Below are positions 10,323 to 47,624 of a DNA stretch of 56,232 nucleotides, piece after piece. The DNA comes from Elusimicrobia bacterium RIFOXYD2_FULL_34_15. GTDB lineage: Bacteria > Elusimicrobiota > UBA8919. Position 1 is the stretch's first letter. Each line of letters starts with the position of its first letter. The notes under the pieces were generated by a model. The model was given only the letters and a program-made list of their open reading frames with translations, was not told where the DNA came from and searched no databases. Where the stretch lies: positions 1 through 56,232 of the forward strand of contig MGVS01000039.1 in the NCBI GenBank assembly GCA_001800605.1. The letters run 5' to 3'. Made by a program: the position numbers and the translations under genes.

Positions 10323-10323
10323 A

Positions 10324-10434
10324 TTACTTATTACCCAGCTTGTCCCGACCCATCGGGATTACTCATTACTTGTCACTCATCACTCGTTACCCCCGCCACT
10401 AGGTCTTCGGCGGGCAAGCATTACTCGTTACCGA
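10324..10434. repeat. TTACYCR heptamer array carrying two inserted hairpins
   Basis: Hairpins at 10338-10358 (GCTTG-TCCCGA-CCCA-TCGGGA) and 10392-10418 (CCCGCC...GGCGGG-CAAG); removing them restores the 7-nt period. Confidence 0.85.
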
Positions 10435-10438
10435 TTTT

Positions 10439-10846
10439 CTATGCTCTGAAGAAATTTCCCTTTAAATCCATTATTGATGCTTTTGCATCACTTAATACTT
10501 TTTCTTTTAGTTCCAACAATGTCAATTTCTGCCTATGTGTAAATGCAGACATAACCATATATAGATTAACACCGCTTAATATTTCAATCTTGTTGTTAAA
10601 TTTTTTTAAAAGAGATGTGCAGACAACCGAAGGGGTACCGCCTACTAAATCAAGTAATATAAGCAAACCGTTTTCAATGTTAAATGCTTTTATTATTTTT
10701 TCAAGCCGGATTTCGACAGATTTAGGATCTTCATTGCTTTTTATAGATACTGCGGCCGAAAACTGCTGTTCACCTATTATGTTTCGGGCAGTTTTCAAAA
10801 GCGTTGCCCCGAAATCTTCGTGTGTAATAATTAGAATATTAATCAT
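10439..10846 (-). CDS. PTS mannose-family EIIA-like protein
   Basis: MINILIITHEDFG, LDLVGGTPS, SGVNLYM; start reset to ATG 10846. Confidence 0.88.
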   Translation of the reverse strand: MINILIITHEDFGATLLKTARNIIGEQQFSAAVSIKSNEDPKSVEIRLEKIIKAFNIENGLLILLDLVGGTPSVVCTSLLKKFNNKIEILSGVNLYMVMSAFTHRQKLTLLELKEKVLSDAKASIMDLKGNFFRA

Positions 10847-11045
10847 TTTTTCGTTAGAAAAGCCGAGACCACCACCGAACCGTAGATGGGCAGGCAAACT
10901 CGGCAACTCTTTCAACTTTTAACTTCCAACATCGTTCTCTTGTTCTGAAGTTCTGCTGTTCTATAAACTATGAACTCTTTACTATGAACTTTTTTACATT
11001 TTACTCATTACCCGTTACTCGTTACTTATTCTTTTCCTTCTATGT

Positions 11046-12626: not shown

Positions 12627-12644
12627 AAATTTTTCCTAATAAAT

Positions 12645-12755
12645 GATTACACAGATTTTCAACACCGATTACACTTATTAGAACCTAATCCTTAGAAAAA
12701 TCTGTGTAATCTGCCTTTTAATCTGTGTAATCAAACATCCGTTTTTAGGATGTTT
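12645..12755. repeat. GATTACACAGAT-family inverted-repeat element
   Basis: 2x GATTACAC / 2x AATCTGTGTAATC plus AAACATCC-7-GGATGTTT hairpin. Confidence 0.85.
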
Positions 12756-13618
12756 TATTTTGTTTTTCTTTCTGCTGTTATCGTTATATGACGTTCATCA
12801 ACCCCATCTTCTGAAACTGCCTGTATAGCATGTTCCTGAAAACCATCAGGAAATGCAAATCTTAATGAGAATGTACCATCGGGATTCAATTTAATCGGCT
12901 TGCCGCTTACGGTTAAAGATGCTGTCGGTTCAGTTGCTCCATAGATAATTAGTTCAGCATCTGCAATAAGCCAGAATTTTCTTTCTTTTCCCAGCGGTTT
13001 TCTGAATGAACTTGAACCGGAAAACGCACCCGATGAAATTACGCTTAGCATTTCCCATCTCTTTGCAAGCAACTTTGCCATTTCTAATGAGCCAACACCA
13101 ATTTTATCAACACCGGAAAGTTTCATTAATCTGTCATAATCGCCCATTAATAGCATCCATTGTTCATCGGTGATATCTGAAACTCTATCTGCCGGAAGTG
13201 AAATAATGTTTGATCTTAAAAGCAATATGAATTTTCCGTCTTTGGTCTTGAGACCAAGCTCAACACACCAGGACCTACCCGAAAAATCAACTCTAATATA
13301 CCAATTTTGTGCATTCAAAGATACAGAATTATCCTTAAAACCTATGGAATTAACTCCATTGAAGTTGCTCACCCCTGTAACATCGTGAATGCGCAAGACA
13401 ATTTGTGCATTTTCAAAAATATCATTACCATATTTACTTTTTATTTCCTGTTTCTTGCCTTCGGTAAGTTCCCAATAAGCAAATATCCAATATGGATCCC
13501 TTGGTAATATAACAATGCGGTCGTCACCATATGTTTCCGGTATCGAATATCCGACATCAACAAAACCTTCCTGTTTTTTTTCTTTCTTTCCCATTGGAGA
13601 AGATGGATTTTGAGACAT
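12755..13618 (-). CDS. DUF4912 domain protein
   Basis: ILPRDPYWIFAYWE and ADAELIIYGATEP motifs; usual neighbour of GH57 branching enzyme. Confidence 0.85.
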   Translation of the reverse strand: MSQNPSSPMGKKEKKQEGFVDVGYSIPETYGDDRIVILPRDPYWIFAYWELTEGKKQEIKSKYGNDIFENAQIVLRIHDVTGVSNFNGVNSIGFKDNSVSLNAQNWYIRVDFSGRSWCVELGLKTKDGKFILLLRSNIISLPADRVSDITDEQWMLLMGDYDRLMKLSGVDKIGVGSLEMAKLLAKRWEMLSVISSGAFSGSSSFRKPLGKERKFWLIADAELIIYGATEPTASLTVSGKPIKLNPDGTFSLRFAFPDGFQEHAIQAVSEDGVDERHITITAERKTK

Positions 13619-13832
13619 AGTCTGCCCCCTTCTTAAACATACTCTACAATTTTAAATTTACTATTCTACTCGTTTAGATTCAACTATATATATCTAGATT
13701 CCCATATTACTAAACTAAAATAATTTTACTCCGTAAAACATGCTTCCGTGACTCTTAAATAAATCTTTATTATTTTATTCCACTTAAATGTCAAATATGT
13801 ATATAAGCTTACAAACCAATCTCTAACTGGGC

Positions 13833-14696
13833 TTATCTTCCAATATCTCTGTGTTTCAAAGTTACAGAAAATCCCTTTTTGCCCAAATAATCTCCCAAAG
13901 CATTAGCAAGAACTACCGAACGGTGTTTGCCACCGGTACAGCCAAGAGCGATTGATAAATATGATTTTCCTTCCTTTACATATTTAGGAATTATATTTGC
14001 TATCATAGAAAAAAATGATTTTGTGAATTTTTTTGCATCTTCAAAACCCATCACATATTTCTTAACTTTTTTATCATTACCGGTATGGTTCTTAAGAGCT
14101 TCTACATAATAGGGATTAGGTAAAAATCTTACATCCATTACTATATCGGCATCTGAAGGAACACCATATTTATAACCAAAAGAAATTATTGTGATCCTCA
14201 TCTCTTCTTTCTGCGATACTTTCAATAAATCAGCAATGTTTTCTTTAAGCTCCTGAAGATTCATGTTTGAAGTATCGATAACTTTCGATGCCTGAGCTTT
14301 TATATTTGATAAAATAGCGCGTTCTGTTTTAATTGATTCTGTAATGGATTTTCCTATCGGATGCTTTCGCCTGGTTTCGCTGAATCTCCTAAACAACACC
14401 TCATCAGAAGCATCCATGAATAGAATTCTTGGCTGGATACTAAGCCCGGAGATTATTTTTGGGAAATTTGAAAGATCTTCACCTTCTCTGATATCTATGC
14501 CAAGCACTATTTTTTTAAATCTTGAATCTCTTGAGCTTGTACCAAGTGATACGAATTTATCAACTAAAGAAAGTGGCAAATTATCAACACAAAAAAAACC
14601 TAAATCCTCAAAACATTTTATTGCCTGGCTTTTCCCTGCTCCGGATATGCCTGTAATTATAAAAAATTGTGTTTCTTTACTATTGCTTTTGTTCAT
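13833..14696 (-). CDS. rapZ: RNase adapter RapZ / P-loop ATPase
   Basis: TGISGAGKS, CVDNLP, SFGYKYG, DVRFLPNP, GCTGGKHRSV. Confidence 0.95.
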   Translation of the reverse strand: MNKSNSKETQFFIITGISGAGKSQAIKCFEDLGFFCVDNLPLSLVDKFVSLGTSSRDSRFKKIVLGIDIREGEDLSNFPKIISGLSIQPRILFMDASDEVLFRRFSETRRKHPIGKSITESIKTERAILSNIKAQASKVIDTSNMNLQELKENIADLLKVSQKEEMRITIISFGYKYGVPSDADIVMDVRFLPNPYYVEALKNHTGNDKKVKKYVMGFEDAKKFTKSFFSMIANIIPKYVKEGKSYLSIALGCTGGKHRSVVLANALGDYLGKKGFSVTLKHRDIGR

Positions 14697-15639
14697 TATT
14701 TTTCTTTCTATCTTCTTCTCTCATCATTTCAATAAGCCGTTTATTTAAGTCCTGCGCAGCATGATAACCGCGTAATTTAAGACGCTGGTTCATAGCTGCT
14801 ATTTCTATAATACCCGCAATGTTTCTACCCGGTTTTACAGGAATAGTTACTTCCGGAATCTTAACACCCAATATCTCAGTGTATTTATCATCAAGTCCAA
14901 GGCGTTCATATTCTTTTTCTCCGGCCCAGTTTTCAAGCTGGACAAGCAACTCAACCTTAGTTGAATCCATAACAGAGAATATTCCAAAAAGATTTCTTAT
15001 ATCAATAATACCGATGCCTCTTATCTCCATATGATGTCTAATAAGTTCTTCTCCTGAACCCATAAGAACATCACCTGACTGCCTTTTTATTTCAACAACA
15101 TCATCAGCAACAAGAACATGCCCTCTTTTTATGAGTTCTAGCGCTGTTTCTGATTTTCCAATAGATGCATTGCCAAAAATTAAAACACCCATGCCTGAAA
15201 CATTGACCAAAACTCCGTGTTTCACTATAGAAGGAGCCAGCATATCTTCTAAAAATAGTGTAAGCCCTGTCGAGAACTTTCCTGTTTCTAAAGATGTTTT
15301 TATGATGGGTATTTCTTCTTCCTTTGATAGCTTTAAAAATTCTATAGGTATATCAAGATTTCTTGTTACAATTATAGTAGGAATTTCATAGGAAAATATT
15401 TTTTTGAAAACTTCTTCTTTTACCAGATGTGATTTGAGGTATGTTATTTCTCCTAAACCGATTATCTGAACGCGTTGATAAGGAAAATAATCGAAAAAAC
15501 CTGTCAGCACCAGACCCATTCTGTTTATTTCAGCAACAGTTATTTTTCTATTTAACCCTTCCTCTCCTGAAGCAATTTCTAACGAAAACTCCGTTTCTTT
15601 TTTTTCAAAAAAATCTCGTATAGTGATACTTTTATCCAT
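14680..15639 (-). CDS. hprK: HPr(Ser) kinase/phosphorylase
   Basis: HGVLV, GNASIGKSETALELIKRGH, LVADD, PVKPGRN; start reset to ATG 15639. Confidence 0.95.
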   Translation of the reverse strand: MDKSITIRDFFEKKETEFSLEIASGEEGLNRKITVAEINRMGLVLTGFFDYFPYQRVQIIGLGEITYLKSHLVKEEVFKKIFSYEIPTIIVTRNLDIPIEFLKLSKEEEIPIIKTSLETGKFSTGLTLFLEDMLAPSIVKHGVLVNVSGMGVLIFGNASIGKSETALELIKRGHVLVADDVVEIKRQSGDVLMGSGEELIRHHMEIRGIGIIDIRNLFGIFSVMDSTKVELLVQLENWAGEKEYERLGLDDKYTEILGVKIPEVTIPVKPGRNIAGIIEIAAMNQRLKLRGYHAAQDLNKRLIEMMREEDRKKNNEQKQ

Positions 15640-15647
15640 TATTTTCT

Positions 15648-15733
15648 CAGTATACAGTATACAGTACACAGTTTTTAGATAACCTTATTTTTTGTCTACT
15701 CACTGTATCCTGTAGTCTGTATCCTGTGTACTG
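15648..15733. repeat. Inverted pair of CAGTAYA heptamer arrays
   Basis: CAGTATA CAGTATA CAGTACA ... CTGTATC CTGTAGT CTGTATC CTGTGTA. Confidence 0.8.
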
Positions 15734-15738
15734 CAGTA

Positions 15739-16197
15739 TTATAGTTCGTCTTCTTCCTTTATTATTTTAATAACTTCGTGAGAAGATTGAGCGTCCCTTA
15801 AGGATTGTCTGAAAAATTTATCTTTCAATAACCTTGAAATTTTTGCAATCGCCTGCAAGTGTTCGCTTATTGATTCAGGCGGAGCAATCATTAAAAAAAC
15901 TATATAAACAGGTTCGCCGTCAAGAGAATCAAAATCAACACCAGCTCTGGAAATACCTAAAGATGCAACTATCTTGGAAACCTCTTCGCTTTTTGCATGC
16001 GGTATCGCAACACCTTGGCCGATACCGGTAGACCCTGTACTTTCTCTCTTCATAATAGCTTCTATAGTTTTATCAACACTTTTTACAAGTTTCTTTTTAG
16101 CCAACACATCTATAAGTTCGTTGATAACCTCTTTCTTAGTTTTTCCTTTTAAATCCGTGATAACTAAATTTTCCGATAAAAAATCCAAAATTTTCAT
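15739..16197 (-). CDS. ptsN: PTS EIIA (Ntr/fructose type)
   Basis: RESTGSTGIGQGVAIPHAK; position after hpf. Confidence 0.88.
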   Translation of the reverse strand: MKILDFLSENLVITDLKGKTKKEVINELIDVLAKKKLVKSVDKTIEAIMKRESTGSTGIGQGVAIPHAKSEEVSKIVASLGISRAGVDFDSLDGEPVYIVFLMIAPPESISEHLQAIAKISRLLKDKFFRQSLRDAQSSHEVIKIIKEEDEL

Positions 16198-16198
16198 G

Positions 16199-16732
16199 CT
16201 ACGAACTCCTCCTTTTCTCTATCTCAATTAAACCATAACCAGAATCGTATTTTTTATGAATTACCGACAATTTGTTATTTTGACTGTTAGTAAATACTAA
16301 AAACGCGTAATCATTCTCGGTCAAACTTTCCAGTGCTTCATTAACACTTAAAATCTCGGGAATAAATTTTCTCTTTTTTAAATCTACTGATTCCGCCGGA
16401 GATTGAAATGATTTTTCCTCCAACAACAAATATTTTTCTGCTTTTCTATGACCCTTAATTTTCTCTTTTTCTTTTAATAATTGCAGTTCAACTTTATCGA
16501 CAGCCATATCTACCGCAGAATGAAAATCTGTCGATTTCTTTTTAACTTTTAATGTAACACCCAGTAAATTAATAACAATTTCGACAAAATAAAGATATTT
16601 TTCGCGGCTTAAAAAAACTTCAATTTCATTGATATTTGGAAAAATCTTATGGCTTTTAGCTAATTTTTCATTAATATAATCTAACAACGAATTTGGAACT
16701 TTAACTTTTATAGTCCTAATATTGATTACCAT
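16199..16732 (-). CDS. hpf: Ribosome hibernation factor (long HPF/RaiA)
   Basis: S30AE-like N-domain (DFHSAVDMAVDKVELQL) plus C-terminal domain ending GYGLIE. Confidence 0.85.
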   Translation of the reverse strand: MVINIRTIKVKVPNSLLDYINEKLAKSHKIFPNINEIEVFLSREKYLYFVEIVINLLGVTLKVKKKSTDFHSAVDMAVDKVELQLLKEKEKIKGHRKAEKYLLLEEKSFQSPAESVDLKKRKFIPEILSVNEALESLTENDYAFLVFTNSQNNKLSVIHKKYDSGYGLIEIEKRRSS

Positions 16733-16750
16733 TGCTCCTCCCGAACCTAT

Positions 16751-16778
16751 ATAATACTAAAATCACGAATAAAGTCAA
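16751..16778 (-). promoter_or_regulatory. Sigma70-type promoter upstream of hpf
   Basis: TTGACT-16-TATTAT. Confidence 0.55.
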
Positions 16779-16816
16779 CTATTTATACACAAAAATTAAA
16801 AATTACCTGCCCCTAC

Positions 16817-17536
16817 TCACATCTTAAATTTCTTGCCGAGATATATTTTCCTTGCTTCTTCGCTCTCTAAAAGCTGTTTAGCTGAACCTTCAATTAGAAC
16901 CCTACCATCATAAATTATGTATGCCCTATCTATTATCTCCAAAGCTTCTCTAACATTATGATCTGTCAATATAACACCTATCCCCGATTTTTTCAAATCT
17001 TTTATTATATTTTGGATATCAGCAATTGTAATCGGATCTATACCTACAAAAGGTTCGTCAAGAAGTATGAAATGAGGATTTATTGCTAACGCACGCGCTA
17101 TTTCTGTCCGTCTTCTCTCGCCACCGGACAGATTATATGCGTATCTGTCTTTTAGATTATAAATACCCAGTTTCTTTAAAAGTAATTCACTTTCCGTGTA
17201 GCATTTATCTCTTTCATAACCGAGCATTTCAAGTATTGCCAGAATATTTTCCTGCACAGTAAGCCCTCTGAAAATCGATGACTCCTGAGATAAATATATT
17301 ATCCCTTTTTGGGCCCGCAAATAAACAGGAATATTTATTATGTCTTCCGAATCAAAGTATATATGTCCGCTATCCGCCTTTATTAATCCGCTTATTATGT
17401 GAAACGAGGTTGTTTTACCGGCACCGTTAGGGCCAAGCAGACCTATAATTTCCGAGTCATTTACGAACATCGAAAGTTCGTTGACTACTCTGTGCTTTGA
17501 ATAAGTTTTTACAATATTTTCTATTTTCAGTTGCAT
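16817..17536 (-). CDS. lptB: LPS export ABC ATPase
   Basis: GPNGAGKTT, LSGGERRRTEIARAL, LLDEPF, TDHNVRE. Confidence 0.95.
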   Translation of the reverse strand: MQLKIENIVKTYSKHRVVNELSMFVNDSEIIGLLGPNGAGKTTSFHIISGLIKADSGHIYFDSEDIINIPVYLRAQKGIIYLSQESSIFRGLTVQENILAILEMLGYERDKCYTESELLLKKLGIYNLKDRYAYNLSGGERRRTEIARALAINPHFILLDEPFVGIDPITIADIQNIIKDLKKSGIGVILTDHNVREALEIIDRAYIIYDGRVLIEGSAKQLLESEEARKIYLGKKFKM

Positions 17537-17549
17537 AATATTGAGAACC

Positions 17550-17732
17550 AATTTAAAATTAAAAGTTTCCGCTACTAAGTCGTTAGCGGATCCGCCGAAG
17601 CATAGTGGCGTAAAATATTCAGAACGACATTCATGTCATGCTGAGCCACATTCACTTCGTTCAGGATGACACTTTGTATCATTTTTAATTTTTCATCCCG
17701 TAAAAACGGGACAAGTTTTTGCATTTTTAATT
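17550..17732. repeat. A/T-rich heptamer arms carrying several hairpin elements
   Basis: Double hairpin 17568-17610, GTCAT...CTTCG..TCAGGATGAC 17635-17670, TCCCGT-AAAA-ACGGGA-CAAG 17696-17715. Confidence 0.8.
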
Positions 17733-17734
17733 GC

Positions 17735-18397
17735 CTATTTCATAATCATCTTTGATTGTACATTGCCTAAAATGGTTAAAATTTCTTTTTCCAATGCCAA
17801 TATAATTTTGTCTCCGGTGTATTCAGAATAATTTTTTTCATCTCTTCTTATTATTTTAGGAGGACCGCCTAATAGCAAAAGCTCGTCTGTTTTTTTGTCA
17901 TAAAATGCTTCATCACTTAGCATCTCTGTCCCTTCCTGAAAAATTTTAACATCTTTTATCGCATGAAACTTTTCACCAAAATCCGATATTTCAAGTTTTT
18001 CACAGGTCATATTTACAACGTCGGTTGTATTGTTGGTCAAAAATCTTTTCATTTTAACATTACCGAAAAAAATCCCGCTGCCGCTGTTTTTACTGTATTG
18101 TGCTTCATCTGCCCAGCCGTTGATATTTGTCATTCCGCTTGAATAGTGAATATTTATATTACCCTTACCGGTTATCTCGCCGTTTTTATCGTTTGACTTC
18201 ATTTCATCTGCAATGATTTCAAGGTTTTTTTGCTTAAATTTTACATTACCCAGGAATTCCATTATATCGCCTTTCGATAATATTTTCATCTTATCACCCG
18301 TAATTGTGGTCGGTTCATTTTTATCTGCAGAAAATACAAAACAACATACGTTGATAAAAAATATTATTATTAAACTAGTTTTCATTATTTTATTCAT
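17735..18397 (-). CDS. lptA: LptA/OstA-like periplasmic protein
   Basis: Signal peptide, repeated beta-jellyroll-like segments, synteny lptC-lptA-lptB. Confidence 0.75.
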   Translation of the reverse strand: MNKIMKTSLIIIFFINVCCFVFSADKNEPTTITGDKMKILSKGDIMEFLGNVKFKQKNLEIIADEMKSNDKNGEITGKGNINIHYSSGMTNINGWADEAQYSKNSGSGIFFGNVKMKRFLTNNTTDVVNMTCEKLEISDFGEKFHAIKDVKIFQEGTEMLSDEAFYDKKTDELLLLGGPPKIIRRDEKNYSEYTGDKIILALEKEILTILGNVQSKMIMK

Positions 18398-18420
18398 TAA
18401 TATTACTCTGCATTCTTCAG

Positions 18421-18458
18421 CTGTATCCTGTATACTGTGTACTGTGTACTGTATCCTG
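18421..18458. repeat. CTGTRTM heptamer array (single arm)
   Basis: CTGTATC CTGTATA CTGTGTA CTGTGTA CTGTATC. Confidence 0.8.
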
Positions 18459-18462
18459 ACTA

Positions 18463-18987
18463 TTACTTCTTTACCACCTTCACGTCTTTTAAAATAGTTA
18501 TATCTGACAAATCTGAATTTGCTTCCAGGCCTATGCCTGTAATTGTGGAATCCTGTTTCTCCTGGCGAATAAAAGAATTCGAAGTTACCCTATTGGTTTT
18601 TCCAAAATAATTCAGTGAATCGGCATAAATAGTAGTATTTTTCAAAAGTGAAACTATTGAAACATTCCCCATTGCCTTTACATCGCCTGTGTCGGATTGC
18701 AAAACTGCCTTGTCAGCTAAAATGAAAGAGCTTATTTTTTTATTTTCATAAAAGCTCATTCTAATGTTTGTTGCATTTACAACTTTTTTCTTTTCGTAAA
18801 CATCGCCGTGAATTGCAAAAAAATTCCACTCGTGTTTTTCTAAGTCGTATTTGTCTATACTTAGATTTTTTATAATCTGGTCCGGGAATGTATTGCTTAT
18901 AAAAAATTTGTCTGCCTTTTTGCTGCAAGAAATAAAGCAAAAAGACAATATAACTACGAGCGGTATTGCTTTAATACATTTTCCCAT
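18463..18987 (-). CDS. lptC: LPS export protein LptC
   Basis: N-terminal hydrophobic/lipoprotein-like segment, ITGIGLEANSDL motif, synteny. Confidence 0.8.
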   Translation of the reverse strand: MGKCIKAIPLVVILSFCFISCSKKADKFFISNTFPDQIIKNLSIDKYDLEKHEWNFFAIHGDVYEKKKVVNATNIRMSFYENKKISSFILADKAVLQSDTGDVKAMGNVSIVSLLKNTTIYADSLNYFGKTNRVTSNSFIRQEKQDSTITGIGLEANSDLSDITILKDVKVVKK

Positions 18988-19493
18988 AAACCTTTTGATT
19001 TAAAAACAATCTCAATAACTTCCCTGAATACACCCTCGCCGCTTTCTGCATCTGTTATATAATCGGCCGATTTTTTAACATCTTCGGACGCATTTTTAGG
19101 ACATGCAGAAAAACCGCATTTTGACATTACCGATAGATCTACCAGATCGTCACCTAAAAAAGCAACTTCGTCAATATTAAAATTCTCTTTTTCCAAGATT
19201 TCGTTTATTGCAGAAATCTTGTTCATACAGCCCTGGTAAAGATAATGAATGCCCACTTCCTTTGCCCTTGTTTCAACCTGTTCTGACTTTCTTCCTGTTA
19301 CCCATGCAAGTTTTATATCTTTTGCATGATTTTTCAAAAGTGTATAGGCAAACCTGTCGCGCGCATCCCAGAATTTTACTTCTTCACCGTTTTTCAATAT
19401 TATTATTTTACCGTCAGTCAAAACACCGTCTATATCTGACGCGATTAATTTAATATTCTTTATCTTATTAATTATCTTTTTACTAATCTTCAT
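18954..19493 (-). CDS. kdsC: KDO 8-phosphate phosphatase
   Basis: HAD motifs DIDGVLTDG and GDDLVD; start reset to ATG 19493. Confidence 0.92.
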   Translation of the reverse strand: MKISKKIINKIKNIKLIASDIDGVLTDGKIIILKNGEEVKFWDARDRFAYTLLKNHAKDIKLAWVTGRKSEQVETRAKEVGIHYLYQGCMNKISAINEILEKENFNIDEVAFLGDDLVDLSVMSKCGFSACPKNASEDVKKSADYITDAESGEGVFREVIEIVFKSKGLWENVLKQYRS

Positions 19494-19504
19494 AAATAGA
19501 ATCT

Positions 19505-19656
19505 GATTACACACCTGCCTGCCGGCAGGCAGGGATTTAGAAAACCGATTACACAGACTTTTAAAAGCAATTTAAGATTTAACGAAGAGCCTTAATCTGT
19601 GTAATCTTGCCTTTTATCTGTGTAATCAGTGATTGTTTGGATTTTTAAACAATCAC
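19505..19656. repeat. GATTACACAGAT-family element with inserted 20-nt palindrome (19514-19533)
   Basis: Removing the palindrome restores GATTACACA|GATTT; terminal hairpin GTGATTGTTT/AAACAATCAC. Confidence 0.88.
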
Positions 19657-19659
19657 ATT

Positions 19660-20712
19660 TTATCTTTCTGTCATTTTTCTGGTATTTTTCTCAATATCCA
19701 GGAAAAGTAAAATTGTTTCGGCAATTGCGTTAAAAGAAATAAAAATTATATAGGATATAACGGCTATACCAACCATGCCGAGTAAAGACGAAAAAATACT
19801 TTGCGGAAGCAATACTATGAAACAACCTATTGCCGTTATTAATCCTATTATCAAAATAAATCTTCCGAGAAATCTAAATACGTTTGATATACGATGTAAT
19901 GCCCCGTATCTGCGCGGATTTGCAATCTCCGGTGCTTTAAGAATATTTCCGCAATTAATACAATAACCGCTAACCGGTGTTTCTTTCCGGCAGATAGCAC
20001 ATATCATTATGGCTTCTTCTGCCGACGCTTTTTCTTCTGAAGTAGGTGAAAATTTTTCTCCCATTCCTATAAAAAGAAATATTAATCCTGCCGTTATACC
20101 GCCTGAAATTACATCAGCAGTAAAAAACATTGCAGGAGAAACCGCTTCAAATCTTAACCTCAAAAATATTTCCCAACCAATTGCACCGCCAATTGCGCCG
20201 CCTAACGCACCGCCGATAAAAACATAGATTCTTCTTTTATCACTGGATGTAAACAATCCGATAAAAGCGCCCGTAATTAACCATATAACCGCATTTGCCG
20301 TTGTGTAAAGTGAGAATTCTAAACTTTTTGCTTTTTCCGGAATAAACAGCCACATCGGCATATCATTTCTTAAAAGGTACATGGCAACAATACTTCCGAT
20401 TACTCCGCCCAAAATTGCACCTAATAAACCGAAAATTACTTTATTAGTTGATTTCTCAAGAACTCCGATAACTATCCCAATAAAAACTGCAGCTATAACA
20501 ATCCTAAGCACAATATAGAACGGTTCTGCTATTCCTTGATTTGTAATGTTGAAAATACCGGAAGATAAAAACCAGCCTATACAACCCGCAATTGCGCCGG
20601 CAAGCGTTCTTCTCAATAACCATGCAGCGGTTGTGAGTAAGAAATTTGTTCCGCAAACTCCGCAATACTTGGAACCTTCTTTTACTTCTGCATCACAATT
20701 TGAGCAACGCAT
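19660..20712 (-). CDS. Gly-rich multi-pass membrane protein with two zinc ribbons
   Basis: CxxC-x10-CxxC at the N-terminus and internally; about 8 hydrophobic Gly-rich helices; SD GGAGG before ATG 20712. Confidence 0.75.
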   Translation of the reverse strand: MRCSNCDAEVKEGSKYCGVCGTNFLLTTAAWLLRRTLAGAIAGCIGWFLSSGIFNITNQGIAEPFYIVLRIVIAAVFIGIVIGVLEKSTNKVIFGLLGAILGGVIGSIVAMYLLRNDMPMWLFIPEKAKSLEFSLYTTANAVIWLITGAFIGLFTSSDKRRIYVFIGGALGGAIGGAIGWEIFLRLRFEAVSPAMFFTADVISGGITAGLIFLFIGMGEKFSPTSEEKASAEEAIMICAICRKETPVSGYCINCGNILKAPEIANPRRYGALHRISNVFRFLGRFILIIGLITAIGCFIVLLPQSIFSSLLGMVGIAVISYIIFISFNAIAETILLFLDIEKNTRKMTER

Positions 20713-20730
20713 AAAACCTCCGTTAAACAG

Positions 20731-20834
20731 CAATTTAAAATTTAAAAACTTGTCCCGTTGTTACGGGATGTAAAATTATCCGCCACTAAGTCGCTGGCGG
20801 ATCCGCCTAAGCATCAATGGCGGAAAAATTGTGG
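20731..20834. repeat. AAAATT array with three inserted hairpins (filled site)
   Basis: Inserts 20749-20768 and 20779-20824; empty counterpart at 46187-46223. Confidence 0.88.
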
Positions 20835-20876
20835 TTAATTTATTAAAAAAACAATTTACCCATTACCCGTTACCCG

Positions 20877-21134
20877 TTACTTATTTATTGGTTTTGGTGC
20901 CATTTTTTCATACATCGGATATTCTGATTCCCAAGTTGGTAAATTTCTATCAAACTTGTTTAAGAAAAATCTTGCTACAAAAAATAAAACTATTACTATA
21001 ACATAAATTATTCCAAGAACTTTCAAGTGCCATTTCCAAGTCGGTTTCCATGGAACATACATCAAATCTGCACCGCAACTTTTACATATCTTTGCCGTAT
21101 CCTTGTTTTCAGTCTGACAATTATAACATTTCAT
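20877..21134 (-). CDS. Small zinc-ribbon membrane protein
   Basis: CYNC...CKSC plus one TM helix; SD GGGGAG. Confidence 0.75.
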   Translation of the reverse strand: MKCYNCQTENKDTAKICKSCGADLMYVPWKPTWKWHLKVLGIIYVIVIVLFFVARFFLNKFDRNLPTWESEYPMYEKMAPKPINK

Positions 21135-21156
21135 AAACTTCTCCCCCTAAAGACAA

Positions 21157-21295
21157 CCCGCCTGCATCAGCTGTGCTGAAAGCACTGCGGGCAGGTTAAA
21201 AATTCAAAATGAAAAATTTAAAAATGAATGTGAAAACCTTATCTTTCCGCTACGACTCCTCAGCCCGTTACTCGTTACCCGTTGCCCGTTACTTA
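21157..21295. repeat. CAGG-tailed hairpin (21157-21195), AAAATT array and TTACYCG array
   Basis: CCCGC...GCGGG-CAGG; TTACTCG TTACCCG TTGCCCG TTACTTA overlapping the kdsA stop. Confidence 0.75.
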
Positions 21296-22092
21296 TTTTT
21301 AATTTCTTTCAATAAATTTTTTAGTTCAGATAATTTTACGGAATTTGCTGAATCTGATAATGCCTTTTCAGGACTGGGATGCACTTCCATGAAAATAGCA
21401 TCTGTCCCAATCGCTAAAGCAGCTTTTGATAACGGCAGAATAAATTCCTTCTGTCCGCTGCTTTTATTGCCAAGACCTCCCGGCAATTGAACCGAGTGTG
21501 TAGCATCAAAAATTACGGGATATCCGAAATTTTTCATTATCACAAGAGAACGCATATCAACAATAAGGTTATTATAGCCGAAACTTGTGCCCCGCTCAGT
21601 AAGTAAAATATTTTTATTCCCGGTTGACTCTATTTTCTCAACTACATTTTTCATGTCATACGGCGAAAGAAACTGGCCTTTTTTTACATTTATAGGTTTC
21701 TTTGTAATTGCTGCTGCAATTAATAAATCAGTTTGACGACATAAAAATGCCGGAATCTGTATTGCATCCGCTACTTTTGCGACTAACGGAATTTCGCTAA
21801 CGCAATGAACATCCGTTAAAACCGGTATATCAAATTTTTCTTTAATATCTGCTAAAATCTCAAGCCCTTTATAAATACCGGGACCGCGGTATGATTTTAT
21901 CGAAGATCTGTTCGCTTTGTCATATGATGCTTTAAATACTAATGGTATTTTTAATTCCTTTGTAATTTTTTTAAGTTGTTCGGCAATCTTAAAAACAATT
22001 TCTTTTGTCTCAATTACACACGGCCCCGCAATTAAAACAAACGGATTTTTACCGCCGATTTTTATATTACCAATTTTAATTTCTATAGTCAT
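21289..22092 (-). CDS. kdsA: KDO 8-phosphate synthase
   Basis: IAGPCVIE, KASYDKANRSS, QIPAFLCRQTDL, DATHSVQLPG. Confidence 0.97.
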   Translation of the reverse strand: MTIEIKIGNIKIGGKNPFVLIAGPCVIETKEIVFKIAEQLKKITKELKIPLVFKASYDKANRSSIKSYRGPGIYKGLEILADIKEKFDIPVLTDVHCVSEIPLVAKVADAIQIPAFLCRQTDLLIAAAITKKPINVKKGQFLSPYDMKNVVEKIESTGNKNILLTERGTSFGYNNLIVDMRSLVIMKNFGYPVIFDATHSVQLPGGLGNKSSGQKEFILPLSKAALAIGTDAIFMEVHPSPEKALSDSANSVKLSELKNLLKEIKNK

Positions 22093-22625
22093 TATTCAAT
22101 ATGTTCAATATATTCTATCAACCTTTTAGCCTTGTCTTTATCCCTGAGAAGCAACGAAGTGTCATTATTATTTTTTAACCCGTCAAACGAATAATTATGA
22201 CTACCGATGATAATTGTTTCTTTATCTATAACTAAAACTTTGCTGTGAGTCGTCCTTTTAGAACTGTCAAACCGTACATTTATACCGGCTGCCTTTAATT
22301 TATTGAATACTTCCTGATTTTTTAGTGTTTCTTCTTTTATATACTCAGATTTTGGATAGTCCAAAACCACATAAACATCTAATCCCCTGGTACGTGCATC
22401 TATGAAATCCCTGAGCAACCTATTGGAATATGCATCTTTATAATCGTAAAGAAGAAACAAATAAGCGACAAGATGAACTGATTCTTTTGCATTTTGTATC
22501 TCTCTATGAGCAATCTGAAAGTATTCATCATTCAGTATTAGCTCGCTCTGTATTCTTGCTGTGACACATCCTAAAAAAATATTTACTATGATAAAAAGCA
22601 AAATTATTAATGTCCATTTTTTCAC
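22092..22625 (-). CDS. Phospholipase D-superfamily (single HKD, Nuc-like) lipoprotein
   Basis: HSKVLVIDKETIIIGSHN motif; lipobox-like FLGC. Confidence 0.85.
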   Translation of the reverse strand: MKKWTLIILLFIIVNIFLGCVTARIQSELILNDEYFQIAHREIQNAKESVHLVAYLFLLYDYKDAYSNRLLRDFIDARTRGLDVYVVLDYPKSEYIKEETLKNQEVFNKLKAAGINVRFDSSKRTTHSKVLVIDKETIIIGSHNYSFDGLKNNNDTSLLLRDKDKAKRLIEYIEHIE

Positions 22626-22688
22626 TCATTCCTCTTTTTGACACCGATTCTATCCTCTACTCATTACCCATTACCCGTTACTATTCTT

Positions 22689-23474
22689 TCACACAACAAC
22701 CCGATTCTTATAATTCAATACACTTGCCAATGTAAGCGGGTTAGGGTCATCGATATCAACCGAGCTCCAAGCGTCCATCATAAAACGTTCAATATATGCA
22801 TACGGTAAAAATCCGTAACCTTTCTGTCCCCACTCTTCTGACCATGAATTCTTAAATTTAATAACTTGCTTTTTATCGTCATAACCTACCGGACAAATTG
22901 CATGCCCACCCAAGCTGCTTTCATTTTTCTTTGGCATAGGCACAATACCCGTCGTTCCGGTTTCCATCATCCCATTGAAAACCTCAATCCCGATAACGCA
23001 CGGTCCTTTAGTCGCAAGATTTAGACGCAGTTCATTAAGGTTAAGTATACGGGCATATGTCATTATACTAAATTTTTTGGCATTTGTCTTGGCTCCTTCC
23101 TGCGCTTTGTTTCTTTGATGCGGGAAATACGGCCAATACTTTTCCTGGCAAACACCTTTGCTCTCAAGCACCTGCATCGCCGCGCGTATTGTCGTGCCTT
23201 CTGCCCCGGGTATACCGTCAATCTTTTTACATTCACTATAAAGAAACCTGGGGGAAAGCAAAACCAATTTTTTATAATCCTGTAATTCCTGGTACTCTTT
23301 CATACCGGCGACTGTCGCAAAACCAACGCAGGTACCTTCATCTCCCTGATCTCTGACAGGCGATACCTTTGGCGTATAGTCAACCTTAGCCGGTAACTTT
23401 ACAACCGGCAAATACGCCCTCATCAAATAATCCCTGTCGTCAAATTTATCTTTAATACATCCAAATTTTTTCAT
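22689..23474 (-). CDS. Papain-family (C1A) cysteine peptidase
   Basis: VRDQGDEGTCVGF, GGHAI, KNSWSEEWG. Confidence 0.9.
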   Translation of the reverse strand: MKKFGCIKDKFDDRDYLMRAYLPVVKLPAKVDYTPKVSPVRDQGDEGTCVGFATVAGMKEYQELQDYKKLVLLSPRFLYSECKKIDGIPGAEGTTIRAAMQVLESKGVCQEKYWPYFPHQRNKAQEGAKTNAKKFSIMTYARILNLNELRLNLATKGPCVIGIEVFNGMMETGTTGIVPMPKKNESSLGGHAICPVGYDDKKQVIKFKNSWSEEWGQKGYGFLPYAYIERFMMDAWSSVDIDDPNPLTLASVLNYKNRVVV

Positions 23475-23479
23475 TTGTT

Positions 23480-24778
23480 TTAAAAACTATACTTAAACAC
23501 TGCTCTTACCGAATTCCGGCCAACACTATCTTTCTGTACATAATCCGTATATCTGGATATAAAATCTATCCCTAGTGTTAAATCTCCATCTATGAAATAT
23601 TTATCGATTGATAAATTAGTATAGTATCTTTTTTTATCATTATTTGAATCATTAAAATCGTAATTATTTCCTATTAATCCCGCCGAAACCTTCCAACCAT
23701 TTTGTTTTATTTTGTAATTTGCTTTTATACCGGCGGTTTCCTTCCTGTAATTATTACCTAACTTAAGACTATAATTTACATTTTTATGCTCAATATCAAA
23801 ATCAAGCCATATTCTATTTTTGTCATTATCCAAAATTTCGTATCCCCATCCGTTTTGAATATAAAACCCTTCGTGATTTAAGTCAGCGTCAATATAATCC
23901 CTTTTAAAATACTGATATTTTAAATTTGCATTTAATCTTTTATTGATTCTGTGTTCAGTCCCGGCATAGTATTGTCGATATTCGTAATCGTAATCATCGT
24001 CTCTTTCGTCTTCTTCTTTAGTATCCCGCTGGCCCCAGCTAGCCCGGGTTGTGATTTCATATAGCCAGGGAAAATCAAAAATATAATCAAATCCTCCCAT
24101 GGCATCCTGTTTGGTTCTTTTCCGGTCTATTTTCTTTTCTTTCAGTTGTTCTATCTTGTAAGATGAAGTAAGCATTAATTTCTTACCCAAAAAATATCTT
24201 TTCCCGCCAAGCTTACTAAAAATCTTAAGTTGATCATTATTTTCTGATTTTAAATAATCAAAATCATCGATACCCGCAGATAAATTTATCGTATAAAAAT
24301 CTTTTTTCGTAAATGTAATATCGGGTACGCCTGTAACCTGATTATATTCACTTTTTGGAGAATTATCATACCGTTTCTCTTTATATTTCATTTTAAGGCC
24401 CAGCTCCAGCGATTCTTCCTCAAGCTTGCTGATAAAATATGACCAGTTTGTTTTGAAAATTTTAGATACGTTATCCAAAGAATCTTTAGTATCATAGTTT
24501 TTGTCATAGATGAATGAGCTTATATTGTAAATTAACCGATCTGATACTTTCTGTCCGAATTTGAGATGATAGTTGTGATAAGTATAATCATCATCCGTGT
24601 CTTCTTCTTCGTAATCTTCAGATGTTGACCTTTTACTTACTTCAGTATAACCGCTTAAGGTAAAAACATCCGCTTTTGATAAAGTATATTCATTTTCATC
24701 CGTGTAAACCGGTAAAGTAAAACCTTTTATTATATTTAGGGTAAAAAACCCAATTATGAGAAAGAACACTTTTTTCAT
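23480..24778 (-). CDS. Putative outer-membrane beta-barrel protein
   Basis: Signal peptide, alternating aromatic/polar strands, C-terminal FKYSF. Confidence 0.65.
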   Translation of the reverse strand: MKKVFFLIIGFFTLNIIKGFTLPVYTDENEYTLSKADVFTLSGYTEVSKRSTSEDYEEEDTDDDYTYHNYHLKFGQKVSDRLIYNISSFIYDKNYDTKDSLDNVSKIFKTNWSYFISKLEEESLELGLKMKYKEKRYDNSPKSEYNQVTGVPDITFTKKDFYTINLSAGIDDFDYLKSENNDQLKIFSKLGGKRYFLGKKLMLTSSYKIEQLKEKKIDRKRTKQDAMGGFDYIFDFPWLYEITTRASWGQRDTKEEDERDDDYDYEYRQYYAGTEHRINKRLNANLKYQYFKRDYIDADLNHEGFYIQNGWGYEILDNDKNRIWLDFDIEHKNVNYSLKLGNNYRKETAGIKANYKIKQNGWKVSAGLIGNNYDFNDSNNDKKRYYTNLSIDKYFIDGDLTLGIDFISRYTDYVQKDSVGRNSVRAVFKYSF

Positions 24779-24802
24779 TATCTAATTTGTTATGATGGAG
24801 TT

Positions 24803-24952
24803 CCTGCCGATGCATCAGTGACAGACTACCTCTTCGGTTTGCTGTAGTTGCCAACCTTGGCTGGCTTCTTTGTCTTTCAAATGTCAACACAGCCGAGCAA
24901 GCTCGTCAACTACATCCGCCAGTTGGCGGAGATAGGTAACCCCTGCCAATAC
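24803..24952. other. GC-richer intergenic rod-like structured element of unknown class
   Basis: Nested complementary segments TACCT/AGGTA, TGTAGTTG/CAACTACA, CTTGGCTG/CAGCCGAG; carries TCCGCCAGTTGGCGGA (also at 8163-8178). Confidence 0.5.
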
Positions 24953-24958
24953 TATGAT

Positions 24959-27900
24959 CTACCTAATTACAGCTATTTTCCTTAAAACCCTTATCGTCTT
25001 CTCGCCTGTCTTGTGTGCCTTTATTATATATAAATAAACGCCAGATGCAATGTCATTTATATCCCAAGTGTATTCGTAGGCGTATTTATTATTCTTTATA
25101 ATTGGCAATGAAAATATTTCATTTTTATGCAATAATTCACCTGCTATGTTGTATATTTGTATCTCCAAACTATCAGCTATTCCACACTCAGCATGAATAA
25201 TTGGCTGATAACCATTTTTAGCCGGGTTTGGATATGCATACACCTCACCCTTAACAAATGCTGCCGACGGTGCTTGTTTTAATGCTCCAAGTAATATTGG
25301 CTTTTCTTTGTAGTTTACACCTATTATCTTGCTTTGGCCGTTTATGTCAATGCTTTTTGCTATTACGTTACTTAATGTTATTCCTTGTCCGTTTATTGAT
25401 ATATCGCTGTATGGAGCATATATTATTCCTTTTAGTTCTCCCTGCCCGCTTATCTGTATCGGTTGTGTAGTGTTACAATAAATCATTAACTTGTATGGGT
25501 TCCCATTATAATGTACTTCACTTTGTCCTGATATCTGTATTTTGCCTATGCATAATATTTGTATTTCGCCGGTTAGATTAAGTTTTGCTTGTCCTGATAG
25601 ATCTATTCCTGATAAATAATATGTTCCTGTTGATATTGTTAGTGTGTCCTGCCCTGATAGTGTTAATATTCCATTTATAAGTGCTTTTTTGCCTTTGCTG
25701 GTTAATGGTATTTTGTCGTTGTCGTTTGTTTGTGATATTTTTACCTGCATTGTGTCCAAGTCTATAATATATGGACTCATTGGTTCTGTATTTTGTGTTA
25801 TTGTCCCAGTTATTTTGCTTTGGCCAATTAATGTTATTTTTTGTCCTTCCGCATTACCGTCTATTAATGCTTGTCCTGATAGTTTTATTTGTTTGTTGCT
25901 TCTTACATCCCCGTATATTTTACCTTGGCCGTTTATTGTTATTCCTTCAATTCCAAGTGCTGCATATTCAGTTAGTTGCGTTACCGTAAATACTGCTGAT
26001 TTTAATGTTTCTACGTTTGAAACATTATCAATACTCCGGTAAGTTACTGTGTGAGTACCTTCGGAGACAAGGTAAATGGGTAAAGAGGTAGAAAGGTAGA
26101 CAGTGTATGTACTATTATCTATTGAATAATATGTTTCTTTCACACCGGATGCTATACCGTTAACTAACGGATCAATAGTATTAAAAAATATTGGGGTGTC
26201 TGGTGTTATGTAGGTTTCTGTTGTGTTTATAGTAGTGATTGGCGGAGTTGCGTCTACATTTAGAGTTATAGAGTTATAGGGTTCAGCATTATTGAGATTA
26301 TCCTCTGCATAGTATTTTATTGTATGGATACCTTCTGATAGAGTAAATGAAGATGTATAATTTATGAACTCTGAACTATCAACTCTGAACTTAATATCTT
26401 TTAGTCCTGAAAATACTCCATTGATTATTGAATCTTCTGCACTTATTATTATTTCCGTCTCTGAATTTATATATGTTTTGTCGCCAATCTGAAATCCCGA
26501 TGAGTCGGGACAAGTTCCGCAATTTGAAATTTGTAATTCCGATTCCGGCGGAGTATTATCTAATTTTATTGTTACTGTTCTTTCCGGTTCGGTGTTTTCC
26601 ACGTTATCTTGCGAGTAATAATTCATTAAATATATTCCATCTATGCCAGTTATGTTGAATGTGGTGATATATTGGGTATATGCTGGAATATTATCGGTAC
26701 TGGTATATATGGTGTATTTTGTTTCTTTTATACCTGACGGTATTGTGCCAGTACTTGCTTGCCCTGAGCCTGTCGAAGGGTCTATGGTTACCAATTTAAA
26801 TATTGAGTTTGAGGTTATGTATTCATTAAACTTTGGATCAGAGATTGATAAAAACGTTTCGGGAACGCTGTTGTCAATTGTTATTGTTAATGATTTTTCT
26901 GCCTCTTGATTTAGTAGGTTATCATAACTTCTGTAATATATAGTATGCTCGCCGTCAGACAGATTAGAAAGATAAATGGTAGACAGGTAAATAGAATACG
27001 GACTATCATCTATCTTATATTCTGTGTATTTTACACCAAGTCCTATTCCATCCCCAACTTCTATTAAATCATCTATCGCCGATAATTCTATTTGCGACTC
27101 CGACGTTATATATGTCTTGCCATTAATTTGAAATTTGTAATCTGCAATCTGCAATTGACTCACCGGCGGTTTTGTATCCCAAACTACTTCAAATTTTGCC
27201 GTAGTAGATGAACTGTAATTACCGATTGCATCTGTAGCTTCAACTGTCAATGTATAAATTCCATAGGATGGTAAATTAAGAGGCTCTATCTGAACATCCG
27301 TACTCACTATTACTTTAGTACCGATTTTTGATGTATCAGGACATTCTATCAACGTTAAATAACCGGTTGTTACAAACCGTGACAAATCAGTTACATTGAA
27401 ATCAACATATATTTTATTTAAAGTTGCTATAAATCTTTCTCCGCCTTCAGGTGAATTTATTGTAATTACCGGTGATTCATTATCGGTAATTGCTAATATG
27501 CCTATCCTACTTGAAGATTCGTATCTGCTGTCTCCGTCAAATCGCACTCTTAAATAGTATGATAATCTTACCGGTCTTTCAGGAAGTGAAAATTCAAATG
27601 TCACACTGCTTTTTACAAGTGTGCTTTGTGTTATTGTTTGCCAACTGTCATTATTCCAATATTCAAGCACAACCGTTTTTGGTTCATCTTCCTGGTGCAA
27701 TAATTCTAAATTTTCATCATCTGTCATTGTTACTATCAATGTTGTTGTTCCCGGATACAAAATAGTTGCGTTAGGTTTAGATAATATAACTTTTTCTTTT
27801 ACTATTTTTAATGTTTCCTGCACTTGACTGGGTAAATAATAATATCCATCACCGGGAAATTCTATCTTTATAGGATATTCACCGGGCAGTAAATCAATGC

Positions 27901-46168: not shown

Positions 46169-46186
46169 CTTTGCCTTCCTGAAAAA

Positions 46187-46357
46187 CAATTAAAAATTAA
46201 AAATGTAAAATTAAAAATTGTGGTGTTTTATCTATGAACCATAAACTACTAACTCTGAACTTTTTACCTTTTACTCAACCTGTTCTGCCGCCTATGGCGA
46301 GCCTCGCCCCTTTGGGGCGGGAGCTTATTAAGTAGTCGAAGGATTACTCGTTACTGA
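46187..46357. repeat. Composite repeat spacer: empty AAAATT array, CTATGAA array, nested hairpins, TTACTCG units
   Basis: 46287-46320 hairpin (relative at 55331-55372) interrupts CCTGTTCT|GAGCTT...TCGAAGGA. Confidence 0.75.
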
Positions 46358-47582: not shown

Positions 47583-47611
47583 ATTATATCAGAAAAAGGC
47601 AGGTATTACAA
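47583..47611 (-). promoter_or_regulatory. Sigma70-type promoter heading the LPS cluster
   Basis: TTGTAA-17-TATAAT with TGn extended -10. Confidence 0.65.
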
Positions 47612-47624
47612 GAAAAATGCTTTT

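Follow-up and report, generated by a model that had tools for sequence, protein, structure and literature searches.

Between positions 20731 and 20834 of a contig of Elusimicrobia bacterium RIFOXYD2_FULL_34_15, an AT-rich array of short period is interrupted by GC-rich hairpins, which raises the question of whether such hairpins are insertions, how they came to stand where they do and which enzyme could have placed them. The window, meaning the whole stretch of 56,232 nt that was analysed, is contig C39 of a genome (hereafter G000) of 2.47 Mb in 119 contigs with 34% GC and 97% completeness; the nearest genome compared (G001) belongs to the same genus, its KdsA being just 81% identical. Judged from its sequence, the stretch is probably one composite copy of an AT-rich heptamer array that stands upstream of a gene start and carries three GC-rich, REP-like or SDR-like mini-elements of a genome-wide population.

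The locus and its hairpins

The site lies between two co-directional minus-strand genes, one for an 85-aa zinc-ribbon protein (20877-21134) and one for a 357-aa membrane protein (start 20712). Its hairpins, the comparable elements of the window and the uninterrupted array are as follows, with supporting evidence in brackets.

20749 to 20768, minus strand: CTTG-tagged mini-hairpin CTTG-TCCCGT-TGTT-ACGGGA, which reads TCCCGT-AACA-ACGGGA plus CAAG on the minus strand (sequence, fold, excision matches)
20779 to 20801, plus strand: 23-nt hairpin unit in forward orientation, T-CCGCC-ACTAAGTCGCT-GGCGG-A (sequence, fold)
20802 to 20824, minus strand: 23-nt hairpin unit, inverted, forming with 20779-20801 a head-to-head 46-nt doublet with zero spacer
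20728 to 20846, minus strand: composite repeat of an AT-rich heptamer array module and three hairpins (alignment of four copies, with a fifth on contig C37)
46197 to 46224, minus strand: uninterrupted ('empty') AT-rich array module, adjoining a minus-strand gene start on its upstream side
10338 to 10358, plus strand: CTTG-tagged TCCCGA hairpin within a TTACNCN heptamer array (sequence, excision)
10392 to 10418, plus strand: CAAG-tagged 27-nt hairpin, CCCGCCACTAGGTCTTCGGCGGG plus CAAG, in a TTACNCG array (sequence, excision)
19514 to 19533, no strand: 20-nt perfect palindrome CCTGCCTGCCGGCAGGCAGG splitting the motif GATTACACA|GAT (sequence, excision)
26495 to 26515, plus strand: CAAG-tagged TCCCGA hairpin within a heptamer array (sequence, excision)
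47687 to 47728, no strand: 42-nt long-stem palindrome splitting AATCTG|TGTAAT (second copy on contig C3)
47768 to 47787, no strand: 20-nt palindrome CCTGCCTGCCGGTAGGCAGG occupying the loop of a hairpin that is larger and AT-rich (GATTGTTA...TAACAATC)
54487 to 54513, plus strand: 27-nt hairpin with a CAAG tag in an AGRATAC heptamer array (its flanks, once joined, match an uninterrupted sequence elsewhere)

Folded as single-stranded DNA, the stretch is predicted to form three separate hairpins (z = -3.9), and none of 200 shuffles did as well. A long, REPIN-like hairpin was considered for the doublet and rejected, its loops being complementary by eye at 4 of 11 positions and the fold giving two hairpins.

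The first-pass annotation had reported that deleting the tagged hairpin and the doublet leaves a string identical over 27 nt to an uninterrupted array of the same window. The match with the array at 46181-46235 is indeed exact, but it is 28 nt long (46197-46224), and the 28-nt string has a single occurrence in the genome. For the tagged hairpin a 21-nt cut (20748-20768) is equally good, with excision matches at (-1,0) and (-2,-1), while cutting out the 46-nt doublet (20779-20824) yields a 20-mer that is present elsewhere. The host motif is likewise regained at all six other sites from which it had been said to be restored: removal of 19514-19533 gives GATTACACA|GAT, a 12-mer with 236 copies, removal of 47687-47728 gives AATCTG|TGTAAT, and at 10338-10358, 10392-10418, 26495-26515 and 54487-54513 the heptamer arrays come back into phase.

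Exact edges, element families and their targets

The same operation was carried out genome-wide on every CTTG followed by a perfect GC-rich hairpin (n = 99), sites that group into a few subfamilies according to context, with 11 + 11 flank bases joined at offsets from -6 to +6. An existing 22-mer was recreated at the exact edges in 15 of the 99 and by none of the cuts inside the element, and the matches are confined to the same-length, +1 and +7 diagonals, +7 corresponding to one heptamer more. A random control with shorter flanks (10 + 10) gave 1-5 matches per cell among 3000 segments, or about 0.05%, and chance is excluded as the source of the exact-edge matches. A scan for filled and empty sites that was unbiased with respect to the hairpins (all positions, insert lengths of 12-60 nt) returned 1368 non-tandem events, 167 of them with an insert GC of at least 0.5; 85 of these 167 have a perfect stem of at least 5 and fall into a handful of families, namely the CAAG-tagged hairpins, the 46-nt doublet, the 20-nt palindrome CCTGCCTGCCGGCAGGCAGG, a 27-34-nt GCCTGCCTGAC...GGCAGGC element and a 41-42-nt long-stem palindrome. 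As proposed earlier, the elements are without visible target duplication, in the sense that none of at least 2 nt was seen at their edges, and a junction ambiguity of 1-2 nt stays where one base (A or G) flanks both junctions.

The family of elements that had been put at 16-46 nt was found as hairpins of 19-46 nt with exact edges, in many contexts and nested in one another. About 80 hairpins, with stems of every type, carry an unpaired CAAG/CTTG tag; the population further includes 106 copies of the 23-nt unit N-CCGCC-A[C/T]T[A/G]AnnCnnn-GGCGG-N', 43 copies of the 20-nt perfect palindrome and several rarer types. The 23-nt unit is asymmetric and forms 31 head-to-head 46-nt doublets with zero spacer; single copies carry CAAG after the stem, and doublets are mostly untagged. 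Its outer stem pair is kept by covariation (T-A in 62 copies, C-G in 41 and another pair in 3, n = 106), and loop position 14 is C in 102 of the 106 while positions 12, 13 and 15 vary freely. The conserved positions also hold in the copies listed from other genomes of the phylum. Among the 27-nt CTTG-CCCGCC hairpins listed, the type seen at 10392-10418, eight agree fully in stem and loop and stand at eight separate places whose flanks differ, which points to recent copying as the probable origin of these copies. The TCCCGA hairpin, for its part, resembles the anticodon arm of two tRNA-Met genes on contig C31, a similarity that we take to be coincidence.

Several families interrupt each other at defined positions. 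An element CTTGCCCACCA..TGGTGGG lies inside TCCGCCACTGAAACTTT^GGCGGACAAG, at the loop-stem junction of the tagged CCGCC hairpin, in 8 places, and ACTTGCCTGACGGCAGTCAGG stands exactly between the halves of the doublet in three of four aligned composites. The 20-nt palindrome is placed in the GATTACACAGAT motif or in the loops of larger, AT-rich hairpins, and the 23-nt unit occurs in AT arrays, in TTACNCG arrays, in the loops of other elements and in the D, anticodon and T loops of tRNA copies.

The preference for short-period arrays that the first-pass annotation had inferred holds in part. A period-7 flank accompanies 22 of 80 tagged hairpins, 5 of 31 doublets and none of the 46 counted matches to the 20-nt palindrome; for comparison, 305 of 5000 intergenic positions chosen at random have one. 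Arrays are thus favoured, though other targets are used, among them GATTACACAGAT, hairpin loops, tRNA loops and other elements. Orientation and phase are fixed within a host repeat, in that all 17 CCCGCC hairpins counted come after GTAA[CT]G.

Most copies are extragenic. The main hairpin families lie 80-95% outside crude ORF calls, in a genome of which ORFs cover 90%, and the rare CCCACCA type does so in 4 of 8 cases. The elements stand mostly between co-directional genes. Their orientation relative to the downstream gene differs between families, with 14 with and 4 against for TCCCG hairpins with CAAG, 12 with and 23 against for CCGCC hairpins with CAAG, and 46 with and 43 against for the 23-nt units; counts on the G-rich strand, as given by GC skew, show opposite biases for the two tagged types (18:5 and 9:29, respectively), the units standing at 43:50.

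Composite copies, relatives and competing explanations

The clean contrast between the interrupted and the uninterrupted array had been read as a filled and an empty site. The contrast with 46197-46224 is real, but the sites compared are paralogues, which counts against the reading preferred here as well. The locus is one of five genome copies of a composite of roughly 100-125 nt with the layout CCACAATTTTT-(unit)(unit)-ATAATTTT..-(TCCCGT hairpin + CAAG)-TTTTTWAATTTTWAATTG, located in the window, on contig C1, twice on contig C51 and on contig C37. Each copy stops right before the ribosome-binding site of a different gene, that of the window (20728-20846) ending about 20-30 nt upstream of the gene start at 20712, and homology ends at the edges of the array modules. 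An extra nested 21-nt element is present in three of the four aligned composites and absent from the window copy. Since the locus is one composite copy among five, the insertions need not have occurred at 20731-20834 and may predate the locus. In other genera only separate modules match, namely the doublet and, together with an AT flank, the TCCCG hairpin, so that the modules are old and independent and the composite is genome-specific and was copied as a unit.

Under the preferred reading of a composite copy carrying mini-elements, the hairpins would have spread by a copy-and-insert process supplied in trans, whose machinery would recognise the folded hairpin. Insertion would prefer unpaired or easily melted DNA, such as the loops of tRNA copies, hairpin loops, hairpin-hairpin junctions and AT-rich arrays, and composites, once formed, would be copied again as units. 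Comparable behaviour is ascribed to REPs and to the SDRs of cyanobacteria.

Orthologous loci bear on this reading. In two relatives found by a scan of metagenome contigs, the 357-aa protein is 90% identical, with the same upstream 85-aa gene (locus L114), or 76% identical (locus L115); both loci are without all three hairpins, and AT-rich arrays are present before the gene. These arrays are too diverged for the junctions to be read base by base. At 19514-19533 the intergenic region is unalignable with that of L114, in which different hairpins stand; in G001, synteny downstream of kdsA is lost and part of the locus reads N.

Across the phylum, the doublet pattern was found in 9 of 201 sampled genomes, at 40 places in G000, 18 in G001 and 1-3 in each of seven others (five families), while a reversed control pattern gave no match in any of the 201. 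Two families of the phylum have the tagged CCGCC hairpin in multiple copies (37 copies in G000, 21 in G001, 12 in G173, 9 in G002 and 7 in G171). A collection-wide scan returned 74 loci, mostly in Elusimicrobiota MAGs, among them a closed chromosome that has the pattern at 14 places, and also in several Omnitrophota MAGs; the few GC-rich genomes among the 74 loci are probably chance matches.

A different account is that the hairpins were not transposed at all and arose once or a few times within dispersed host repeats (AT arrays, TTACNCG arrays, GATTACACAGAT), from which they were spread by homologous recombination or gene conversion. We regard it as unlikely for the population as a whole, and for the composites spread by recombination between host repeats is a live rival. 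All five composites have near-identical array flanks and hairpin loops and lie upstream of unrelated genes, and because they share their array flanks, recombination between arrays could spread hairpins too. Within the host repeat, each subfamily also always has the same orientation and phase, a pattern that a single origin followed by the co-spread of array and hairpin would equally give, and in other genera the TCCCG hairpin and its AT-array flank are matched as a single piece (query positions 3-51). This account fits poorly with the 23-nt unit, which occurs in unrelated contexts from AT and TTACNCG arrays to element loops and tRNA-copy loops, with flanking homology that is often a few bases only, and it leaves the nested insertions at unique positions of other elements unexplained.

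It would also be conceivable, though we consider it improbable, that selection maintains the hairpins as cis-acting signals (for instance terminators, stem-loops that stabilise mRNA, or binding sites for proteins) and that the look of insertion is incidental. An intrinsic terminator consists of a GC-rich stem directly followed by a T run and is oriented with the upstream gene. On the gene strand, TCCCGT...ACGGGA followed by CAAGTTTTT scores terminator-like, and 14 of 18 TCCCG hairpins are oriented with the downstream gene. The likeness is confined to the TCCCG family, in which the 4-nt CAAG forms a spacer before the T run; the other families are without a T run and occur in both orientations. 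The position of the elements, intergenic and mostly between co-directional genes, would suit a regulatory role, as would the stem covariation and the specific loop positions conserved across the phylum, and the latter could reflect host function rather than a transposase. Against such a role stand the lack of a shared orientation rule (12 with and 23 against for the tagged CCGCC hairpins, 46 and 43 for the units), an orthologous site that is without hairpins in two relatives, a copy number ranging from 0 to 40 among related genomes, and the fact that the elements interrupt one another and tRNA copies. Rfam gave no family at gathering score in the whole window and no more than chance-level matches near the site. 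A host function is in any case compatible with mobility, the two being no more exclusive here than in REPs.

That the inserts reflect errors made in assembling a genome from a metagenome is a negligible prospect, for although the window comes from a 119-contig assembly, the same elements recur with consistent edges at hundreds of places and in independently assembled genomes from many records, a closed chromosome included.

Candidate enzymes and comparable repeats

As the first-pass annotation had stated, no enzyme gene lies in the window, all candidate matches being on other contigs. Its attribution of the elements to an HUH/Y1 enzyme does not hold in the form given: G000 has five Y1_Tnp genes, and none is flanked by these hairpins. 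One of them, a 149-aa gene on contig C1, passes the NF047646 model of REP-associated tyrosine transposases (88.7 bits, cut-off 80), and the remaining four score below that cut-off. Within roughly 1.5 kb on each side, none of the five loci has a CCGCC or TCCCG hairpin, two of the genes being flanked by unrelated inverted repeats; when the Y1 loci of G000 and other Elusimicrobiota are taken together, 1 of 43 has a CCGCC hairpin within the same distance. Conversely, 80 loci centred on doublets (552 kb in total) are free of Y1 homologues. The RAYT homologues of other Elusimicrobiota have classical GTAG palindromes of other sequence in their flanks, and the closed genome with 14 doublets holds a Y1 fragment only, together with weak GIY-YIG matches. 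A RAYT-like Y1/HUH transposase is a tentative candidate for the enzyme.

The proposed comparison of flanks among Y1/RAYT, GIY-YIG, four-helix-bundle (TIGR02436) and GxxExxY (TIGR04256) genes singles out a small GIY-YIG gene rather than a Y1 gene. On contig C77 two identical doublets enclose a stand-alone GIY-YIG ORF of about 85 aa. GIY-YIG homologues lie 18-207 nt from the doublet in four of the five doublet loci that hold one, including a locus in an Omnitrophota MAG, and CCGCC hairpins lie within 18-190 nt of the GIY-YIG gene in 9 of 14 loci. The gene is flanked by hairpins on both sides in five genomes (G000, G171, G173, G002 and G005). In 12 of 13 loci the ORF stands about 30-110 nt upstream of a same-strand tRNA gene, and the thirteenth reads N there. 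Ahead of the ORF stands a partial tRNA-Ser copy whose D loop contains hairpins, as does its anticodon loop, where they come immediately 3' of CTTG; a tRNA-Pro copy of the Omnitrophota MAG has a doublet in its T loop, also after CTTG.

Co-occurrence was counted with a genome regarded as hairpin-positive if it has either pattern with a CCGCCA-type loop, a grouping of 14 genomes that was set after the matches had been seen. Of these 14 genomes, 12 have the GIY-YIG type and 8 the RAYT type; among the 187 others the numbers are 6 and 11, respectively. Because the genomes are related and not independent, both sets of counts overstate the association. Neither enzyme is universal among hairpin-bearing genomes, and one doublet-bearing genome has no GIY-YIG match. 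Speaking against the link to GIY-YIG genes, a hairpin lies no more than 400 nt from 13 of the 39 tRNAs of G000, with or without a GIY-YIG gene in the vicinity, and of the four GIY-YIG genes of G000 with a tRNA within 400 nt one has hairpins nearby.

A small tRNA-linked GIY-YIG nuclease is a rather doubtful candidate, somewhat less likely than the RAYT-like transposase, and an agent other than these two is about as likely as both together. If it were the enzyme, it would nick folded single-stranded loops, into which hairpins would be pasted, and its targets would be AT arrays that melt easily, other hairpins (in their loops) and, in tRNA copies, the D, anticodon and T loops. Speculatively, the CCGCC-type hairpins might then form a third, CAAG-tagged REP-like super-family with a non-RAYT partner, the tRNA-riding GIY-YIG nuclease of about 85 aa (a 'GIY-YIG REPtron').

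Four-helix-bundle genes (TIGR02436, six in number) and GxxExxY genes (TIGR04256, two) were rejected as candidates; one of them, on contig C9, is near a CCGCC hairpin, and most are flanked by other short arrays. The 80 doublet loci contain two four-helix-bundle matches, at 432 and 5429 nt from the doublet. No reverse transcriptase (PF00078) was found in G000, which is 97% complete, so that an RNA route is without a candidate enzyme in the assembly. Taken together, the observation made at this locus is confirmed and generalised, and its earlier interpretation is partly supported.

Among known systems, the SDRs of cyanobacteria would, by description, be the closest behavioural match to the Elusimicrobiota hairpins. 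SDR1-8, attributed to Elhai and colleagues (2008), are reportedly hairpin-forming, 21-27 nt long, located within tandem heptamers and nested in one another. The elements described here are likewise very small hairpin repeats with period-7 flanks (22 of 80), nested and precisely inserted into a short motif. SDR5 is reported to be inserted between nucleotides 3 and 4 of HIP1 (PMC4390886) and SDRs are confined to Nostocaceae (PMC5861425), whereas the hosts here are Elusimicrobiota and, for some copies, Omnitrophota; the two sets are compared here by description. The CAAG tag, the head-to-head doublets and the insertions in tRNA loops are features that the descriptions used do not attribute to SDRs.

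Tagged REPs of the GTAG and CGTC super-families are GC-rich palindromes of 20-40 bp, intergenic and of high copy number, with an unpaired 4-nt end tag, and many of them stand as inverted pairs; the CGTC REPs, too, have no dedicated transposase (Di Nocera et al., 2013; PMC3733652). The elements here share the palindrome, the tag, the inverted dimers, the high copy number and the mostly extragenic position at a length of 19-46 nt. They differ in their tag (CAAG/CTTG), in the smaller size of the units (19-27 nt), in doublets whose halves abut directly and in being placed inside other short repeats. In the text of PMC3733652, CAAG, CTTG and Elusimicrobia do not occur, and in a literature search on REP/REPIN and Elusimicrobia the name is absent from the ten best-matching of 148 papers. 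In the REPIN-RAYT system the unit is a pair of inverted REPs (Bertels and Rainey, 2011; PMC3116915; PMC3337134). The 31 inverted doublets and the RAYT-like gene on C1 recall that system, but the RAYT-like genes of G000 are not flanked by these hairpins.

The likeness to IS200/IS605 elements lies in the hairpins and the absence of target duplication. Peel-and-paste transposition of these elements uses hairpin ends, makes no target duplication, inserts 3' of a fixed tetra- or pentanucleotide, which is retained as the left flank, and is marked by a bias of orientation with respect to replication. Single hairpins here differ in carrying CTTG along, with varied flanks and no constant preceding tetranucleotide, and the elements are 20-50 times smaller, geneless and without a uniform strand bias, the two tagged families leaning in opposite directions. 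Doublets in copies of two different tRNAs, for their part, are immediately preceded on the 5' side by a CTTG that belongs to the tRNA. MITEs have terminal inverted repeats and a target-site duplication and are usually longer than 100 bp; the elements here differ from them in measuring 19-46 nt and having no duplication of at least 2 nt.

The hairpins look like some of the smallest insertion elements known, in a phylum from which none had been reported, and few insertion-like DNA units on record would be as small as those of 19-27 nt. They would extend the biology of REP- and SDR-type repeats to Elusimicrobiota and Omnitrophota. Their spread bears on an open question, namely how REPs without a dedicated transposase and cyanobacterial SDRs are propagated, which PMC3733652 raises for the CGTC REPs. 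With many clean filled/empty pairs, nesting, insertions in tRNA loops and two enzyme candidates, the mechanism becomes testable with oligonucleotides and purified proteins.

The repeats also break short-read contigs at every copy. Logan contigs, found for seven runs, covered window positions 9500-27500 with contigs that in four runs end at repeats; none of the pieces listed bridges 20731-20834, they are uninformative on the presence or absence of the hairpins there, and insertion polymorphism was not observed directly. As the repeats fill the regions just upstream of gene starts, both the assembly and the reading of regulatory regions are affected in such genomes.

Dispersed host repeats and further hairpins

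19500-19615 and 47610-47760: examples of the 12-mer GATTACACAGAT / ATCTGTGTAATC
46197-46233: AT-rich heptamer array module (CCACAATTTT...AATTG), found in about 30 other places
46290-46325: additional hairpin families GGCGAG-CC-TCGCC and CGCCCC-TTT-GGGGCG
17560-17615 and 17686-17734: further matches, one doublet-like and one to the TCCCG hairpin and AT array

The 12-mer is a dispersed repeat in its own right that hosts the 20-nt and 42-nt palindromes. It occurs in 236 copies across the whole genome, 214 of them outside crude ORFs, and is present in both orientations with frequent inverted pairs. The ends of the AT-rich heptamer array module are defined. In 17 of the 22 cases scored it lies upstream of a gene start in the orientation of the gene, and it may represent an independent 5' leader or promoter-proximal module.

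The two additional hairpin families, each with about 17-18 copies genome-wide, adjoin arrays of the TTACNCN type in the window, and the second doublet-like and TCCCG-hairpin matches lie about 3 kb away from the hairpin-bearing site at 20731-20834.

Y1 transposase genes and their palindromes

L127 (congener genome G001), about 1340-1600: counterpart of the RAYT-like gene on contig C1, with the same neighbouring genes on both sides
C38 (about 2200-3010) and C87 (about 25300-26400), contigs of the window's own genome: Y1_Tnp genes, 225-335 aa long

The G001 RAYT-like ORF contains in-frame additional sequence holding GTAG-type hairpins (GTAG with GGCAGGG..CCCTGCC, and GGCGAGG..CCTCGCC with ACTAC), palindromic repeats that lie within a coding region. 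The Y1_Tnp genes on C38 and C87 are bracketed by inverted repeats of their own (AATAGGGACAGCGCCCA and TAGGGGACGTAG), in which they resemble the TIR-flanked tyrosine transposases described in PMC3733652.

Small GIY-YIG ORFs at tRNA genes

C77, about 35350-35930 (L111), and loci L160, L161, L163, L169 and L170: small GIY-YIG ORF with tRNA
C31, about 48480-49020: further GIY-YIG ORF, 88 aa

At L111 and the five other loci, a partial 5' copy of a tRNA (Ser, Pro or Cys) sits ahead of the small GIY-YIG ORF and the intact gene for the same tRNA follows about 30-110 nt downstream. Many Elusimicrobiota genomes share this arrangement, which has the appearance of a tRNA-targeting GIY-YIG cassette. On C31 the ORF starts inside a copy that resembles tRNA-Met, and another partial tRNA copy comes after it. 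In these tRNA-Met copies the anticodon arm (ATCCCG-ATTCAT-CGGGAT with CAAG) resembles the TCCCGA mini-hairpin with its CAAG tag.
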